Assembly (NCBI GenBank): GCA_963825135.1
Contig: CAWGRW010000009.1
Location: 2,336,001-2,400,000 of the forward strand
Direction of reading: 5' to 3'
Length of the DNA stretch: 64,000 nt
Source of the DNA: an uncultured bacterium
GTDB taxonomy: Bacteria > Desulfobacterota_D > UBA1144 > Nemesobacterales > UBA2774
Shown: piece after piece, positions 27,001-33,000 of the stretch
Layout: each line of letters opens with the position of its first letter
Position numbering within the stretch: position 1 is the first letter of the stretch
Made by a program: the position numbers

Positions 27001-30000
27001 GAATCCGTTTCCGTATTTCTGCCGTCTAGGAATCATAAGGCGGGGCCTGACGAATATCTGAACGGCGGGATAATCGCCACGATTATAGACTGCCATTCCA
27101 TCTGCACCGCGATAGCTGACGCTTACGCGCGGGAGAAGAGGGCATTAAACAGCGAGCCCTTTATCTGGTATGTTACGGCTTCGATGAAGATCGATTATCA
27201 CAAGCCGACCCCTATTTCCGGGCCTGTAACTCTCAGGGCCAGGGTGGGCGAAAGGGAGGGGAAGAAGACTCTCGTCGCTTGCGAGCTCTTTTCAGGCGAG
27301 CTCAAATGCGCGGGGGGGGATGTGCTGGCCATAAGGGTGTCTCCCGAAAAATGGTTTAAGTAATATACGGCGAGGGCGCCAGGCTGTAAATTAATACATC
27401 ATAGAATCCGGCCCGCGGGGAGCGCGATGAAAAGAATTGCAATATTTATTCTGTTAATATTTTTCCTGTCTTCAGCCGCGGTAATCGATATAAGCGCCGC
27501 GGAGCAGCCCCGGCCGGTCAAAGCCAGGATCGTGGCGGATGTCACTGCAGTCAAACCGGGCGTGCCTTTCAAGTTCGGCGTGCTGTTCGATTTAGACCCG
27601 CACTGGCATATTTACTGGAAGAATCCGGGGGACTCCGGTCTCCCCACGTCGGTTGTGTTTTCGCTCCCTCAGGGCTTTACGGCTACTGACCTCGGATGGC
27701 CCGTTCCCACACTCCTCAAGGGGGCGGGCAATTTGACCGACTACGGCTACGAGGACTCGCTCCTTCTGCAGGCGGGCGTAACGCCCCCTCCCGACCTCAA
27801 GCCGGGCACGGCCGCTAAATTCACGGCCCGGGTCTCGTGGGTAAGCTGCAGGGATATCTGCATACCGGGCAGAGCCGAGCTTGAGCTTGAGCTGCCAGTT
27901 TCAAAGAGCGCCGAGAATGCGAACAACGAATTATTCTCGGAATGGCGGGCGCGCTTACCGGTGAATCGTTCCGGCCGCAAGCCGCCTTTTGAAATAGACT
28001 CAAAAACGGCCGCAAGGGGCGAGAACGAGTACTCTGTCGTGATCCTGCTTGATCCCGGGGACTCGGTGAACGATATCGGGCTTTACCCCGTGCCCGGCGA
28101 TTCGTTCGTTGTCAGCGATATAGAGGCCGGGACGGACAAGGAGAGCGGTAAGAGATCTCTCGTCTTTAATGTGAGGGCGCTTGCGCAACGCGGGTCCCCC
28201 GGTAACGAGCTCGAAACCCTAATCGTTTACACGGACAAAAGCGGCAAAAGGTCGGGATATGAATTTCCGGTAGCATTGTCTCATTGATAGAGTTAATCCG
28301 GAGTATTTTTGCGGCGTTATCCTTAACACGAAATTAACATCGTCCTGATATGCTGGGAAAACGGAGCGTGTGTGTATGGCCAGGAAACAGATACTTATAA
28401 TCGGCGGCGGTTTCGCCGGCGTGAAATGCGCGAAAGCACTTCGCAGCGGGCTTGCGAGGCAGGAGGCCGACATAATCCTATTCAACAGCGAGAACTACAT
28501 GGTATTCCAGCCTCTCCTCGCCGAGGTCGTCGGGGCGTCGATCAGCCCGGAACACGTGGCCCTGCCCCTGCGCCAGATGCTCCCCGGAGTGTACTGCAGG
28601 ACCGAGGACGTGGCCCATATAGATGTGGATAATAGTTACGTAGAGTTCATGGGCGACCGCGGGGTTAAGGGGATGATGTATTACGATCACCTCGTGATAG
28701 CGTGCGGCTCGGACGTTAACCTCGGCCTGATACCCGGGATGGCGGATCACGCCTTCCCCCTTAAGACCGTGGGCGACGCCGTGGCGCTCCGTTACCACGT
28801 CCTGCAGCAGATGGAGAACGCCGAGATCGCCGACAGCGTCGACCTCAGGAAGTGGTACCTGTCGTTCATAATCGTGGGAGGCGGGTTCAGCGGAGTGGAG
28901 GTCGCGGGGGAAATAAATGACCTCGTCAGGGGAACCCGCAAATACTACAGAAATATTCCGAAAGAGGAGATAAAGGTCACGCTTATACATTCGCGGGACC
29001 AGATTTTACCCGAGGTCACCTCCGACCTCAGGGATTTCGCCAGGATAAAGATGGAACAGGCGGGCGTAAAAGTAGTATTGAACAAGCGCGTCTCGTATGT
29101 GACTTCTGAATGCGTCGGGCTCGGCGACGACGGATTGGTCGAGGGCGCCACAATTGTTTGTACTGTCGGGAATGCCCCCTCTCCGATGATTGAGAAGCTC
29201 GATGCGCCGAAAGACAGGGGGAGGCTCCTGACCGGCCCCGACATGAGGATTCAGGGACTAAAAAACGTATGGGCGATTGGAGACTGCGCATTTATAATGA
29301 ATGAATATGACAGCAAGCCGAGCCCGACGACCGGGCAGTTCGCGGAGAGACAGGGGACGCAGGCGGCGAAGAATATAATCAGGGTGATGAAAGGTCAGGA
29401 GACGAAGCCCTTTCGGTTCAAGCAGGTCGGGCAGTTGTGCGCTATAGGCGGACATAACGCGGTTGCGGAATTTCTCAGGTTCCACATATCGGGTTTTTTC
29501 GCGTGGTTTCTGTGGCGTTCCGTGTACTTGTTCAAGCTCCCGACGCTCTCGCACCAGCTTAAGGTGGGGTTCGACTGGGCCTGGGAAGTATTCTATTCCA
29601 GGGACCTAGCGCATCCCAAGGGCGACAAGACGGAGAGGGTTTCGAGGGCCCATTTTCAACCCGGGGATTATATTTTCAGGGAAGGGGACCCTTCGAGCAA
29701 TTTTTACATCATAGAATCGGGCGAAGTCGAGGTTCTGAGGACAACTCCGGAGAAGGATAAGGAAATGACTGTGGCAGTGCTCGGCCAGGGGGATTTCTTC
29801 GGTGAAATGGCGCTCCTTGAAAACCGGAACCACAGTGCGAGCATAAGGGCGAGGACCAATGTGGAGCTCACAGTGATGGGTACGAAGGTATTCCAGCAGA
29901 TATCCGGCGCCCTGGCGCCCTTCAAGGAATTCCTGGCAGACGCCGTAAAGAGGAGGGGCAGCGATATCTGGCAGCGGATTCCCGCCGCTTACAATATATT

Positions 30001-33000
30001 AGAGGCGGAGCCCCTCAGCACTTTCGTCAAACCGCTTTCCGATAAGCTTCTGCCGTCGGATACCTTCCGGACCGCGGTCAGGAAATTGAGCGGCGACGAT
30101 CTCGACTTCTGCTGTGTTACGGATGATTCGGGCAAGCTCCTGGGTATCGTTACGCGTACGGACGTTTTCAGGGCGGTAGACGCGGGCGTAAGGCCCGAAT
30201 CCAGGGTCTCTGCGTTCATGAACCCGTCGCCTGTCTGCGTCACCATAAAAGACGCGAGCACCGTGGTTGCCGGGACCATGCGGGAGCGCGGCCTTAAATG
30301 GGTCCCGGTTGTAGACGACCAGTCTAATCTGAAGATTGAGGGGTATGTGAGGAGGGACGGTATGATAGGGTTCGTCCTCGAAAAACTGAGCGAAATAGGG
30401 GTTTGAGCTCTGCTCTTCCCGATTAGTATCCCCGCGCCCAGTACTATAAGCCCGCCCACTATCACCTGGGGAATATGAACCTCTTCCGCTCATCATCGCG
30501 GCCCCGGCTTATCCCCGTTCCGGTTTCTTCTTCAGTTCCCATTCCGGGCATTATACATCCGTTTTTATTGCAATTTTTACAAGCTGCTGCAGCCGGGCGT
30601 CAAGCTTGAATTGGGCGGTTTTTGGGGTTAGAATGGTTTTACCTGTGTGTACGGTTTTTAATCTACGGGAGGTAATGATGGGCAAGATCAAAACATTAAC
30701 TGGGTTTATAATAATTTTATTGCTGGCGGGTGTGAATATCCGTGCGTCGGAGACGGATATCACGATAACGGAGTTCCGTCAGCTCTATGACAGTCTCCTC
30801 GCGGGCAAGACGCTCGTCACCTCAACTCAGGAAGACGGCGTGGATATAGTCAAGGAGAGGACGTTCGGTCAGGCCGTCGGCGTCGGAGGCAATGATTTTG
30901 AAGTGCCCACAGAGTTAGTGATTTCGAAATCGAGAGACGGGGTCCCGGCGGAGACCATAAAAATAAGCATACTCGACAGGATTAACGACCTTGGCGGCCA
31001 GCCTATTATTTACGAAGAGGCCAGGAATATGGAGGTCGAGAGCACCGGCGCCCAATCCCGCGATACCGGTGAAATTGAGTTTATGGGTCTTTTCCGCGTC
31101 TCTAAAAACGATAAAGGCGGGTTCGACGTCTACAACTTCGGGCTTACCCCCTCTGTGGTCGTTGACGGCAGTACCAATAAGATAGCGGGTTCGAATCTGT
31201 CCTATTCGTGCTACCCCGAGAACGGCCTGACCAAATGTGTTTTGACAATACGGGATTTTCACCTCGGCCCCTACACCCCGCTAGTCGGTTATAAGCTCAT
31301 GCAGCCTGTGGGAGGGGATTTGGTAGAAATTTCTGAGGAAATGAAAAAATAACGGTTATTATATCGGTATTGGCTGTATATACTCATTATATAGAAATTA
31401 TTTGGAGGTCAATAAATTGAAGAAAATCGCGTTTCTGATAACACTTGCCGCGCTCATCGGCTGCCAGACCTATAATCCGGTCGTGGACCCGCAGAGCGTC
31501 GGCAACGGCGACGCATATTACAGGGACCAGGCGGAGTGCAGGGCCATAGCCCAGCAGGGGGCGCCCAATTGGCAAAACACCGCTAAAGACACTGTAGTGG
31601 GCGGAGCGGTGGGTACAGGCACTGGTGCGCTAATCGGTACGATAGCGGGGAATACCGTGGCGGGGCTCGCGTACGGCGCTGTAATCGGCGGGCTCGCCGG
31701 AGGCGCCAAGGGAGTATACGATTCGGAGAAGGGCTACGAGCAGATATACAGGAACTGCATGATAGGAAGGGGATATAACGTTCTCAACTGACAAGCATCT
31801 AGAGGAATGAACGACCGTAACATCCGGAGATTCCTGGATATATTCGATCTCGGCCGCAATTTCTCGGACGAAGAGCTGAAAGACGCCTATAAGGACCTCG
31901 TGCAGGTCTGGCATCCGGATAAGTACTCGAACAACGAAAGGCTCAGGAATCGCGCGGAATCCAAGATAAGGCTGATCAATGAGGCTTACGGCACGCTCAA
32001 AGGCTTGCTCGAGAGGAGCGCGGAGCGGGCGGATGCCCCGGGAAATTCCCAGGGCAGGGACGCGGGAGGGTTAAAGCCGAATAGCTTCTTTAAGAGTGTT
32101 TTTCATACCACGGATTTTTCCGACCTGAGCGATACAGCCTTCACCCATGCGCTGAAGCTTTCACTCTCCGCCAACGCCCTGCTAAATTTATTCCATGTAT
32201 CGCCGAATCATAATAAGTATATAGTATCGGAATTCCCTAAGATAAGGGATACGCTCGTGCGGTGGAAAGTGATTTCGGAGCAGACCGCCGAGGAGGACCT
32301 GCGCGGTCTCGGGTTCTCTTACAAGAAAGTTGTCGCCGTGCATAAAGATCCCGTCACCTCGATCCTCCACTATTTAAAATCCAACCCTTCCGAACTTACA
32401 GTGCTCGCGGCCCACAGCCGGTCCGGCACGGGAAGGCTTCTCCACAAATCGGTAGCGGGGAGGGTTTCGAGCGAGTCGGGGGGCTGGACCCTTTTTATCA
32501 AAGACAATGACCGGGGTTTCGTCTCGTCTGACGACGGAGCGGTGCAATTAAGAAATATTCTGATTCCGATAGACGCGGAGCCCGACCCTCTTCTCGGCAT
32601 AAACGCCGCGCTTAAAATCGCTCAGGTCCTGGGATGCGATAAATGCGTGTTTACCCTTCTCTACGTGGGGGACTCTTTCCTCATGCCTGAATTTGACCTG
32701 CCCCGTAATGGCTCGTGGGAATGGAACAAGCTCGCGCTCAGGGGTAATGTTGTCGAAACGATCCTGAAAATTACCGATGAGATATCAGCCGATTTGGTCG
32801 TGATGGGCACTCAGGGGAGCCAGGGTTTTCTGGACGCCCTGAGGGGCAGCACCTCGGAGCAGGTCCTTCGCAGAAGCCGTAGCCCTCTACTGGCCGTGCC
32901 CGAGCGCAGAAGATACAAATAGACGCCCCTGAAGAGTGACACGACGGGTGTCACTATGCCGGCTCCCCCGGCCGTCCGGCCGCCTCTGCTAACCCAGAAA

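Follow-up and report, generated by a model that had tools for sequence, protein, structure and literature searches.

A type II NADH dehydrogenase body joined to a cyclic-nucleotide-binding domain and a CBS pair: a candidate ligand-regulated NAD(P)H:quinone oxidoreductase from an uncultured bacterium

The window, a stretch of 64,000 nucleotides from an uncultured bacterium of the Desulfobacterota_D (contig CAWGRW010000009.1, positions 2,336,001 to 2,400,000), carries on its forward strand the gene g02303, a single intact open reading frame at 28376..30406 whose translation runs through 676 residues without internal stop. A GTG at 28370, two codons 5' of the ATG, is a possible alternative start, but the ATG is preferred because the resulting length of 676 residues is that of the closest relatives; a protein from another assembly (P0002) is 99% identical. 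The product is laid out in three parts: residues 1-412 form the body of a type II NADH dehydrogenase (NDH-2), residues 421-512 a cyclic-nucleotide-binding (CNB) domain and residues 546-676 a pair of CBS domains. The last two make up 264 residues C-terminal to the NDH-2 body. The initial annotation had described a complete NDH-2, a CNB domain and a CBS pair within one protein, and this description holds, as the frame is intact and the Pfam values are close to the earlier ones. The features are as follows.

28376..30406, + strand: whole open reading frame, 676 aa plus stop (P0001); open frame
28388..29356, + strand: NDH-2 flavoprotein body, FAD and NAD(P)H Rossmann domains (residues 5-327); Pfam Pyr_redox_2, 2e-42
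28403..28420, + strand: first dinucleotide motif GGGFAG, for FAD (residues 10-15); alignment
28877..28900, + strand: second dinucleotide motif GGGFSGVE (residues 168-175), containing the equivalent of S. aureus E172
28988..28999, + strand: His205-Ser206-Arg207-Asp208, at the site of Glu/Asp in NADH-specific NDH-2s; alignment
29279..29356, + strand: GD motif (G302-D303) and quinone-site motif GQFAERQG (residues 320-327); alignment
29429..29605, + strand: NDH2_C membrane-anchor region (residues 352-410); Pfam NDH2_C, 3.3e-10, above its cut-off
29606..29635, + strand: predicted flexible linker (residues about 411-420); pLDDT below 50 at residues 410-420 of the predicted model
29651..29902, + strand: CNB domain (Pfam residues 426-509); cNMP_binding, 1.6e-24
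29801..29851, + strand: phosphate-binding cassette GEMALLENRNHSASIRA (residues 476-492), with His486 at the canonical Arg position; read from the DNA
30011..30403, + strand: CBS pair, or Bateman module (residues about 546-676); Pfam CBS, 2.6e-12, in two stretches
30143..30163, + strand: predicted CBS1 ligand motif G590-I-V-T593-R-T-D596 (GIVTRTD); alignment

The assignment of residues 5-410 to NDH-2 is borne out by sequence, motifs and predicted fold alike. In 86 aligned sequences G10, G11, G12, F13 and G15 of the first dinucleotide motif, G168, G170, G173 and E175 of the second and both residues of the GD motif are invariant, and among representatives of the wider subfamily that cover the respective position E175 is Glu in 134 of 135 and D303 is Asp in 140 of 142. 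PMC5299459 describes GxGxxGxE and what E172 does in the S. aureus enzyme. The anchor region is predicted to form two amphipathic helices (374-385 and 391-406) and retains W377, W380, R381, Y384, D400 and W401 throughout the same 86 sequences. By sequence, the PDB matches include the NDH-2s of S. aureus, mycobacteria, C. thermarum and yeast (E 2e-44 to 6e-29), the first three being the best. By predicted fold, the rows listed at ranks 1 to 24 of a Foldseek search against the PDB are all NDH-2s (E 3e-33 to 3e-28), and FSP1, CoA-disulfide reductases (CoADR) and SQR come after them, from about E 1e-21. Target-normalised TM-scores for the bacterial NDH-2 chains are 0.79-0.88; normalised to the query, NDH-2s reach 0.52-0.54 as compared to 0.41-0.42 for FSP1. 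Judged by sequence and modelling, the catalytic body is a genuine NDH-2 with intact dinucleotide-binding and GD motifs.

The electron acceptor is less firmly indicated. The quinone-site motif of NDH-2s is named AQxAxQ, and the corresponding sequence here is GQFAER. The first Gln, Q321, is nearly invariant and aligns with Q317 of the C. thermarum enzyme, and the second is replaced by Arg325, as it is by Arg in 120 of 150 representatives. Quinone is therefore a putative acceptor, with the Arg at the second Gln position counting against it; in favour of a quinone link count DoxX membrane proteins, which are fused to NDH-2s of the same subfamily (P0164, P0196 and P0205) and are encoded directly upstream in 6 related loci.

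The electron donor, too, probably departs from the initial annotation, which had named the enzyme an NADH:quinone oxidoreductase: the NDH-2 body stands, but NADH as the donor is doubtful. Some plant and fungal NDH-2s use NADPH. The protein described here lacks the acidic residue that follows the second beta-strand in the NADH domain and confers NADH specificity; membership in NDH-2 does not depend on this residue. In its place stands H205, whose counterparts in the alignment are E198 in the C. thermarum enzyme (4nwz), Asp in the mycobacterial one (9mqy) and Glu in that of S. aureus (5na1). This His is found in 117 of 117 relatives, followed by S206 in 111 and R207 in 99 of them, and among 150 representatives the position is His in 90, Gln in 19, Glu in 17, Asp in 4 and another residue in 7, with 13 not covering it. 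A Glu of the C. thermarum E198 type clashes with the phosphate of NADPH, and exchange of Glu for Gln shifts specificity to NADPH, as stated in the part of PMC5220320 drawn on here. Since the NADPH-excluding acid is replaced by an invariant His, while both plain NDH-2 paralogues of the host keep Asp or Glu at this position, the donor is likely to be NADPH, or both NADPH and NADH. This reading draws on one position plus analogy, and a hydrogen bond from His205 to the NADH ribose is conceivable as well.

The CNB domain is predicted to consist of strands (422-502) followed by helices, and its closest solved relatives in a PDB sequence search are the CNB domains of apicomplexan PKG and of PKA RI-alpha. 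The FGEMAL motif noted earlier is present, and F474, F475, G476, E477 and L480 of the cassette occur in all 117 relatives. The suspicion that the canonical cassette Arg is missing proved correct as well: His486 (codon CAC, 29831-29833) aligns with the cassette Arg of the PKG domains. Position 486 is Arg in 101, His in 15 and Gln in one of the 117 relatives, and those at 85-88% identity keep the Arg; in the wider subfamily only 48 of 80 CNB-bearing representatives do so, and Tyr, Trp, Ala or Ser also occur. On a tree of the 117 relatives, built with the cassette columns left out, Arg and His have been exchanged at least eight times, and FFGE, L480, R491 and A492 are equally conserved in His and Arg copies. 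Because of the change to His486, together with these repeated exchanges, it is uncertain whether this copy binds a cyclic nucleotide.

At the far end of the tail the CBS pair is predicted with pLDDT values of 86-92 as two beta-alpha-beta-beta-alpha units, and the PDB relatives of this part are CBS-pair proteins (E down to 6.5e-11). The ribose-phosphate motif of CBS domains reads G-h-h-T/S-x-x-D/N. In CBS1 the predicted motif is well kept among the 117 relatives (G590 in all, T593 in 108, D596 in 114) and better conserved than the cassette Arg, and the CBS2 stretch G656-Y-V-R659-x-D/E is degenerate: it reads GYVRRD here, so that Arg occupies the Thr position, and its acidic residue varies. For the whole protein the model reaches a pTM of 0.60; the linker is modelled with low confidence and the CNB domain with no more than moderate confidence, and the model yields no interface of the tail with the enzyme.

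How widespread this architecture is was addressed by a homologue search in which 6186 proteins among 8000 candidates scored matched at E<=1e-10. The domain count given in the initial annotation was reproduced: PF07992, PF22366, PF00027 and PF00571 occur together in 118 of the 120 top-ranking homologues, which are 52-99% identical, the exceptions being P0060 (503 aa) and P0088 (609 aa), both of which lack the CBS domains. Among the best 80 genomic loci, drawn from at least eight phyla, the match extends through the CBS pair in 76. The CNB and CBS tail is kept as a unit across hundreds of species, as would be expected of a regulatory module. Other members of the subfamily contain the CNB domain alone, or FHA, TPR, AhpC, DoxX, aquaporin or Rieske modules in addition; the fusions to AhpC/TSA, DoxX, glyoxalase and aquaporin are single representatives. 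The g02303 product is one form within this modular NDH-2 subfamily.

The two plain paralogues, 38% and 34% identical to P0001, do exist in the host as had been claimed, but they are not adjacent to the gene, from which about 1.9 Mb of contig separates them. For one of them (C9:458491-459732), a cytochrome-b-like reading frame was recognised by eye in the translation of its locus L003, and the distance to a haem-copper oxidase gene is about 4 kb, whereas the gene at 28376..30406 is located outside respiratory clusters. The host genome encodes one class III cyclase, which resembles the guanylate cyclase Cya2, five CNB-domain matches, three haem-copper oxidase genes and complex I, which makes a cyclic-nucleotide signal as well as a quinone pool plausible. 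In the related loci compared, no conserved operon partner of the NDH-2-CNB-CBS gene was found. A gene for a DsbD_N-type thiol-disulfide protein lies upstream in 14 loci. A DnaJ-Usp stress protein is encoded downstream of g02303. Neighbourhoods are conserved only within lineages, and no partner therefore points to a pathway.

With canonical NDH-2s (5na1, 4nwz and 9mqy) the protein shares the pair of Rossmann domains, the GxGxxGxE and GD motifs, the first quinone-site Gln, the amphipathic anchor and the fold; different from them, it has the CNB and CBS tail, His-Ser-Arg in place of Glu/Asp, and Arg in place of the second Gln. Regulation by a built-in ligand-sensing element has been proposed before for the eukaryotic EF-hand NDH-2s, in this case by Ca2+, and as described in the part of PMC5299459 cited here their sensor is a Ca2+-binding insert between the GD motif and helix 7, whereas the bacterial protein carries a C-terminal two-domain candidate nucleotide sensor. 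The CNB domain is related in sequence to that of Bd1971 (PDB match 1.1e-14; 6hq2-6hq7; PMC6717892), a cAMP-sensing EAL phosphodiesterase in which the sensor is N-terminal and the output a c-di-GMP phosphodiesterase, whereas here the sensor is C-terminal and joined by a CBS pair, and the output would be a membrane flavoenzyme. Comparable in layout are two families in the CNB census of Kannan et al. 2007 (PMC2246266). As far as the portion of the census consulted goes, 'Bact_Pyrredox' combines CNB with an N-terminal pyridine-nucleotide-disulphide oxidoreductase but, unlike the protein here, has tandem CNB domains and a different cassette consensus, GEMGLISGRRRGATVRA, and the 'CBS' family has CNB followed by tandem CBS domains, with a non-canonical cassette and without oxidoreductase; that portion identifies no NDH-2 and contains neither a three-part fusion nor an experiment. 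Our literature searches found no experimental study of CNB-oxidoreductase fusions. FSP1/AIFM2 (8jsc and 9ift), found among the fold matches, is likewise an NDH-2-like NAD(P)H-dependent quinone reductase, but it is a much weaker match than the NDH-2s and lacks a CNB or CBS tail.

But what would such a tail do on a membrane flavoenzyme? The joining of the enzyme to two predicted nucleotide-sensing domains suggests that the entry of electrons into the quinone pool may be turned on and off by signal molecules. We favour, with reasonable though not high confidence, a monotopic membrane-attached type II NAD(P)H:quinone oxidoreductase whose CNB and CBS tail tunes electron flux. Electrons would pass from NADPH, or from NADPH and NADH, to FAD and on to a membrane quinone, and the tail, into which the anchor helices are predicted to lead straight, would adjust this flux from NAD(P)H to quinone. 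A cyclic nucleotide bound to the CNB cassette and an adenosine-type ligand bound at CBS1 would shift the hinge helices behind the CNB barrel, and as these are only about ten residues past the anchor helices at the quinone entrance, the ligand could alter quinone access, membrane docking or dimer geometry. With His at the position of the cassette Arg, this copy may bind a cyclic nucleotide weakly, in a pH-dependent manner or not at all, and the CBS pair would then be the main sensor. Of the allosteric control by a cyclic nucleotide and adenine nucleotides that had been put forward for this protein, the conservation of the CNB-CBS unit across phyla speaks for the regulatory unit, while the cyclic nucleotide as its ligand is uncertain in view of His486. 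The claim of a 'first ligand-regulated bacterial NDH-2' is a hypothesis.

The tail might be regulatory and its CNB domain nevertheless be no cyclic-nucleotide sensor but a structural or dimerising spacer, or a binder of another small molecule, leaving the CBS pair alone to report an adenylate or adenosine ligand. His486, the repeated exchange of Arg and His, the further residues tolerated at this position in the wider subfamily and the better conservation of the CBS1 motif all argue for this. We hold it to be unlikely, as the rest of the cassette is conserved in His copies just as in Arg copies, His can still offer a hydrogen bond or charge to the phosphate, and relatives as close as 85-88% identity have kept the Arg. 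The flavoprotein could also be NDH-2-like only and reduce a disulfide, persulfide, oxygen or metal instead of quinone, as might be read from Arg325, from the thiol-related neighbours and from the best NCBIfam match, which is to a non-NDH-2 oxidoreductase model with a score below its cut-off. This is improbable: the protein has no redox-active Cys pair, C18 and C74 being invariant in the close family only and replaced in the wider subfamily by Ala/Thr/Val and Phe/Val, respectively; the NDH2_C anchor domain and Q321 are kept; and NDH-2 chains are the best matches in sequence and fold by a wide margin.

Rather unlikely, though with more to recommend it, is a role in redox defence instead of respiratory entry, in which NADPH would keep the membrane quinol reduced, as FSP1 does in animals, or feed a thiol/peroxide system, with the tail as a stress switch. 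The NADPH-type signature points in this direction, as do the location of the gene outside respiratory clusters, unlike that of the paralogue C9:458491-459732, the thiol-disulfide gene upstream, the DnaJ-Usp protein downstream, the subfamily fusions with AhpC/TSA, DoxX, glyoxalase and aquaporin, and the presence of FSP1 among the fold matches. Then again, FSP1 ranks well below the NDH-2s in the fold search, the fusions are isolated cases, and the conservation of the neighbours may be plain synteny because it is confined to the Dadabacteria/Thermodesulfobacteriota lineage.

A further, quite tentative suggestion is that NDH-2s of the 'His type' would be second-messenger-gated NADPH valves which drain NADPH into the quinone pool only upon a cGMP or cAMP signal at the CNB domain together with an energy-charge signal at the CBS pair. 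If this were true, the same catalytic core would have been plugged in evolution into FHA, TPR, DoxX, aquaporin, peroxiredoxin and Rieske inputs or partners, and no earlier respiratory or redox-balancing dehydrogenase of bacteria would have been under the direct control of a cyclic nucleotide; the protein would also be the bacterial equivalent of quinol regeneration of the FSP1 type.

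The gene at window positions 28376..30406 (+) is a single open frame of 676 codons with a GGAG 12 nt 5' of its ATG. The initial annotation had described its product as a type II NADH dehydrogenase (NDH-2) extended by a cyclic-nucleotide-binding (CNB) domain and a CBS pair, and this description is borne out by Pfam, which recovers all four domains:

residues 5-327: Pyr_redox_2, E 2e-42
residues 352-410: NDH2_C, E 3.3e-10
residues 426-509: cNMP_binding, E 1.6e-24
two stretches: CBS, E 2.6e-12

No NCBIfam model matched the protein at or above its own cut-off, and a promoter and terminator scan of window 27300-31000 gave nothing useful close to the gene ends. 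The protein is no oddity of its own assembly, since a 99%-identical protein is found in a different assembly and the four-family architecture is the same in 118 of the 120 best homologues (52-99% identity), the two exceptions (the homologues P0060 and P0088) being shorter and without CBS. The family is found in Dadabacteria, Thermodesulfobacteriota, Verrucomicrobiota, Nitrospira, Acidobacteriota, Planctomycetota and others.

Judged by sequence and by predicted structure, the catalytic body is a real NDH-2. Its closest solved sequence relatives are the NDH-2 of S. aureus (2e-44), of a mycobacterium and of C. thermarum (7e-39), together with B. subtilis YjlD and yeast Ndi1. When the AlphaFold model (built from 86 sequences; mean pLDDT 80.6, pTM 0.60) was searched with Foldseek, each row listed at ranks 1-24 was an NDH-2 chain, with target-normalised TM-scores of 0.79-0.88 against the bacterial chains, and FSP1, CoA-disulfide reductases, NADH peroxidase and SQR ranked far behind. 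Marreiros et al. (PMC5299459) characterised sequence motifs over 1762 NDH-2s, and the motifs given in the part of that work considered here are found in the protein. Both GxGxxG motifs, E175 (the Glu of GxGxxGxE) and G302-D303 of the GD motif are invariant in the alignment, and 150 more distant representatives keep the same motifs almost without exception. In the quinone site, Q321 pairs with Q317 of the C. thermarum enzyme, and the second Gln of the motif is Arg in the subfamily to which the protein belongs. Beyond the NDH2_C region the model has two helices (374-385, 391-406) that bear invariant Trp, Tyr and Arg and look as expected for an amphipathic membrane anchor. The idea of a thiol switch formed by C18 and C74, which are invariant in the close family, was dropped because these cysteines are replaced in the wider subfamily by Ala/Thr/Val and Phe/Val, respectively.

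Where the second strand of the NAD(P)H domain ends, the protein reads T-L-I-H205-S-R-D, a His-Ser-Arg-Asp sequence that presumably resembles the HRRD motif of thioredoxin reductase. The HMMER alignments set H205 against E198 in C. thermarum NDH-2, an Asp in the mycobacterial NDH-2 and a Glu in that of S. aureus. According to the part of Blaza et al. (PMC5220320) considered here, E198 clashes with the extra phosphate of NADPH and so disfavours this donor, most NDH-2s have Glu or Asp at its position, and a Glu-to-Gln exchange in the A. tumefaciens enzyme moves specificity toward NADPH. Among 117 full-length relatives (121 proteins less 4 under 640 aa) H205 is present in all, S206 in 111 and R207 in 99. 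At this position the genome's two plain NDH-2 paralogues have V-I-D-P-G-D and L-V-E-G-R-D, and the 150 best cluster representatives carry His in 90 cases, Gln in 19, Glu in 17, Asp in 4 and another residue in 7, the position being uncovered in 13; the His occurs about equally with a CNB domain (46) and without one (44). On these residues, compared across relatives, paralogues and representatives, the alignments place the protein in a 'His-type' subfamily of NDH-2. For binding the 2'-phosphate of NADPH one would expect just such a pocket, with a basic His-x-Arg where the carboxylate would be, and we give NADPH, or dual use of both donors, an even chance or marginally better.

The C-terminal tail of the protein consists of the CNB domain and the CBS pair. 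The closest solved relatives of the CNB domain are those of apicomplexan PKG and PKA RI-alpha, and its phosphate-binding cassette, as read from the DNA, is F-F-G-E-M-A-L-L-E-N-R-N-H-S-A-S-I-R-A. FFGE and L480 are present in 117/117 relatives, and R491 and A492 vary hardly at all. Doubt had been raised at the outset about the cassette Arg, and rightly so: where PKG has its phosphate-binding Arg, the alignment puts His486. Across the whole family the cassette is canonical, position 486 being Arg in 101/117 relatives, His in 15/117 and Gln in 1/117. In 80 CNB-bearing representatives of the wider subfamily the cassette Arg is present in 48 and His in 8.

Is His486 then a sign that the site is decaying? 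The relatives at 85-88% identity have Arg and the 99% relative has His, and in a FastTree of the 117 sequences, computed with the cassette columns left out, Arg and His were exchanged at least 8 times. Such a recurrent single-base exchange within an otherwise frozen cassette suggests a site that is tuned rather than one that is decaying. Contigs of four DNA runs over the gene represent related populations, with 0-26 differing letters per listed piece, and the His486 codon is untouched among the 40 listed of 150 difference rows. The reading of the initial annotation, an NADH-oxidising entry enzyme set by a cyclic nucleotide and adenine nucleotides, thus stands in part: the NDH-2 body and the conserved two-sensor tail hold, NADH as the sole donor is doubtful, and with His486 at the place of the cassette Arg a cyclic nucleotide is uncertain as the ligand of this copy.

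The model is highly confident in both CBS motifs (pLDDT 86-92). Judged against what we take to be the definition of the CBS ligand motif, CBS1 reads G590-h-h-T593-x-x-D596, with G kept in 117/117, T in 108/117 and D in 114/117 relatives, and CBS2 reads G656-Y-V-R659-x-D/E, in which the acid is variable. With the CBS1 motif kept and CBS2 reading R659 and a variable acid, one canonical adenosine-ligand site per CBS pair is predicted as likely.

The NDH-2 core is intact, its donor pocket is non-acidic and the two-sensor tail is conserved. The tail begins about 10 residues past the membrane-anchor helices and is joined through a flexible linker (residues 410-420, pLDDT <50). We propose that electrons would pass from NAD(P)H to FAD and on to the membrane quinone, and that a ligand in the CNB cassette would shift the post-barrel helices (503-527), which run on into the CBS pair. 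The anchor that carries the tail also shapes the quinone entrance, so the ligand state could alter quinone access, membrane docking or dimer geometry. The model, uncertain in how its domains lie to one another (pTM 0.60), yielded no tail-enzyme interface, and complex prediction of residues 1-412 against 415-676, run without controls, scored 0.00 in both runs, a score that speaks neither for nor against docking.

The fusion belongs to a modular subfamily. An exhaustive HMMER search gave 1728 cluster representatives at E<=1e-30, and 130 of the best 150 were scanned with Pfam, the other 20 being fragments of <420 aa or giants of >1000 aa. Among the 130, 71 have a CNB domain, 25 have CNB and CBS, and 2 have CBS without CNB. 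Some forms carry CNB alone (~540 aa) and some combine it with one to three FHA domains, TPR repeats, AhpC/TSA or HlyD; FHA, DoxX, aquaporin (MIP) or ketopantoate-reductase domains are added N-terminally of NDH-2 plus CNB. Fusions of NDH-2 to DoxX, glyoxalase and Rieske domains are also seen, and many members have an N-terminal extension of ~150 aa with no domain assigned. A rough FastTree of 127 NDH-2 domains calls for no fewer than 14 changes in the presence of CNB and no fewer than 18 in that of CBS. By its domain make-up the NDH-2 catalytic core is wired to many inputs, and the protein of the window is the commonest elaborate form of the subfamily.

In the window the gene is preceded by RecF, a 4HBT thioesterase and a DsbD_N-type protein and followed by a hypothetical protein, a glycine-zipper lipoprotein and a DnaJ-Usp fusion. 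Neighbours were clustered over 80 related loci plus the window; a simple ORF caller recognised the NDH-2 gene in 69/81 loci, GC-rich genomes sometimes giving an antisense shadow ORF, and neighbour cluster 1 is partly such an artefact. The gene order of the window is kept in 11-14 of the 80 loci compared, in the Dadabacteria/Thermodesulfobacteriota clade only. The search for an operon partner among the clustered neighbours turned up only such lineage-wide synteny, and since no neighbour is universal across the compared loci we conclude that the gene works alone. Several features around it deserve mention in their own right:

23387-25582 (-): 731 aa, a bacterial double-AAA ATPase resembling CDC48/VCP, with CDC48_N and CDC48_2 domains; 12 related Dadabacteria/Thermodesulfobacteriota loci have it at this position (cluster 4)
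30606-31352 (+): 248 aa, for which the Pfam search gave no family, found at +1 or +2 after the NDH-2 gene and co-oriented with it in 11 related loci (cluster 7)
31807-32922 (+): 371 aa, an N-terminal DnaJ (J) domain and universal stress protein (Usp) domains in one protein, kept downstream in 6 related loci (cluster 20)
36115-37389 (-) and 37470-39296 (-): an AcrB-type RND transporter in two adjacent ORFs

The 608-aa ORF of the transporter covers positions 1-602 of the 1021-position ACR_tran profile and the best stretch of the 424-aa ORF covers positions 844-1020; this is either a broken gene, an assembly frameshift or a natural two-piece form.

In 6 of the loci that keep the gene order of the window (L012-L016 and L018; e.g. 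L015:5481-5873 +) the gene of a 130-aa DoxX membrane protein lies directly upstream of the NDH-2 orthologue, between it and the DsbD_N gene; the window is without this insertion, and three DoxX genes lie elsewhere in its genome. DoxX also stands at the N-terminus of fused NDH-2s of the subfamily (P0164, P0196 and P0205). Elsewhere the neighbourhood differs by lineage. In Opitutaceae the orthologue is flanked by nuoC/nuoD on one side and by NifU_N and a class V aminotransferase on the other. In loci of this type from Verrucomicrobiota (e.g. L024, L033, L057, L065 and L074) NifU_N follows at +1 on the same strand in 8/9, the class V aminotransferase/cysteine desulfurase-like gene also follows on the same strand, and the complex I genes nuoC and nuoD often precede on the opposite strand; this arrangement may reflect either mere synteny or a connection with Fe-S assembly. 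In Acidobacteria the orthologue comes after HlyD/OEP efflux genes.

The genome (3.13 Mb, 94% complete) belongs to a bacterium whose nearest relatives by this protein are 'Candidatus Dadabacteria' MAGs, with 86% identical proteins, and which is on that ground probably Dadabacteria-like. Because it encodes three haem-copper oxidase genes and complex I, the organism is predicted to respire and to have a quinone pool. One plain NDH-2 paralogue (contig C9, G000:C9:458491-459732 (-), locus L003) is 38% identical and has Asp at the donor-specificity position; the same 4.2-kb locus holds a 480-residue frame that, judged by eye from its translation, is like cytochrome b with a C-terminal haem-c motif, and a haem-copper oxidase gene lies ~4 kb away. 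This paralogue sits in a respiratory cluster, whereas the sensor-fused copy does not. The genome has five CNB-domain hits and a single cyclase of class III:

G000:C9:2319245-2319775 (-), locus L001:1249-3531 (-): class III cyclase, 761 aa, CHASE2-cyclase architecture

The cyclase gene lies ~45 kb upstream of the NDH-2 gene, beyond the window, and among solved structures the enzyme is nearest to Synechocystis Cya2 (2w01, 6e-33), which Etzl et al. (PMC5995499), in the part of their text considered here, describe as a CHASE2-regulated guanylate cyclase that E488K turns into an adenylate cyclase. Its purine-specifying position is Glu, as in 2w01, the engineered adenylate-cyclase variant 6fht having Lys, and its second specificity position is Gly, common to Cya2. 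Because these two aligned positions, the sole basis of the assignment, are shared with Cya2, the messenger made by the organism may be cGMP rather than cAMP.

NDH-2 is usually regarded as an unregulated single-subunit shortcut from NADH to the respiratory chain. Targeted searches of open-access texts and preprints turned up no account of CNB or CBS domains on an NDH-2, and none of the papers covered combines NDH-2, 'cyclic nucleotide-binding' and CBS, or 'NADH dehydrogenase', 'cNMP-binding' and 'CBS domain'. Papers that pair NDH-2 with 'cyclic nucleotide' look unrelated by their titles and abstract openings, and in a 2025 preprint on NDH-2 evolution the terms 'cyclic nucleotide', CBS, cNMP and 'fused' are all absent. 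The closest precedent is the census of Kannan et al. 2007 (PMC2246266), the part of which considered here describes a 'Bact_Pyrredox' family (38 NR and 70 ocean sequences) with tandem CNB domains on an N-terminal pyridine-nucleotide oxidoreductase, lists a separate CNB+CBS family and says that CNB domains may touch 'NADH production'. It differs in that this part of the census identifies neither an NDH-2 nor the three-part fusion and contains no experiment. For eukaryotic NDH-2, EF-hand insertions have been proposed to provide Ca2+ control (PMC5299459, in the part considered here).

Beyond the identity of its domains, we infer that the protein is probably a sensor-fused NDH-2 that accepts NADPH. 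Taken together, our results suggest that this large and phylogenetically broad family is a widespread enzyme carrying built-in sensors, one for a second messenger and one for an adenosine ligand, and that it probably uses NADPH. The hypothesis is addressable on one protein, and the natural Arg/His variants of the cassette offer a built-in control. If it is true, post-translational signalling would act directly where electrons enter the quinone pool, and a function would come to many proteins annotated so far only as 'FAD-dependent oxidoreductase'.
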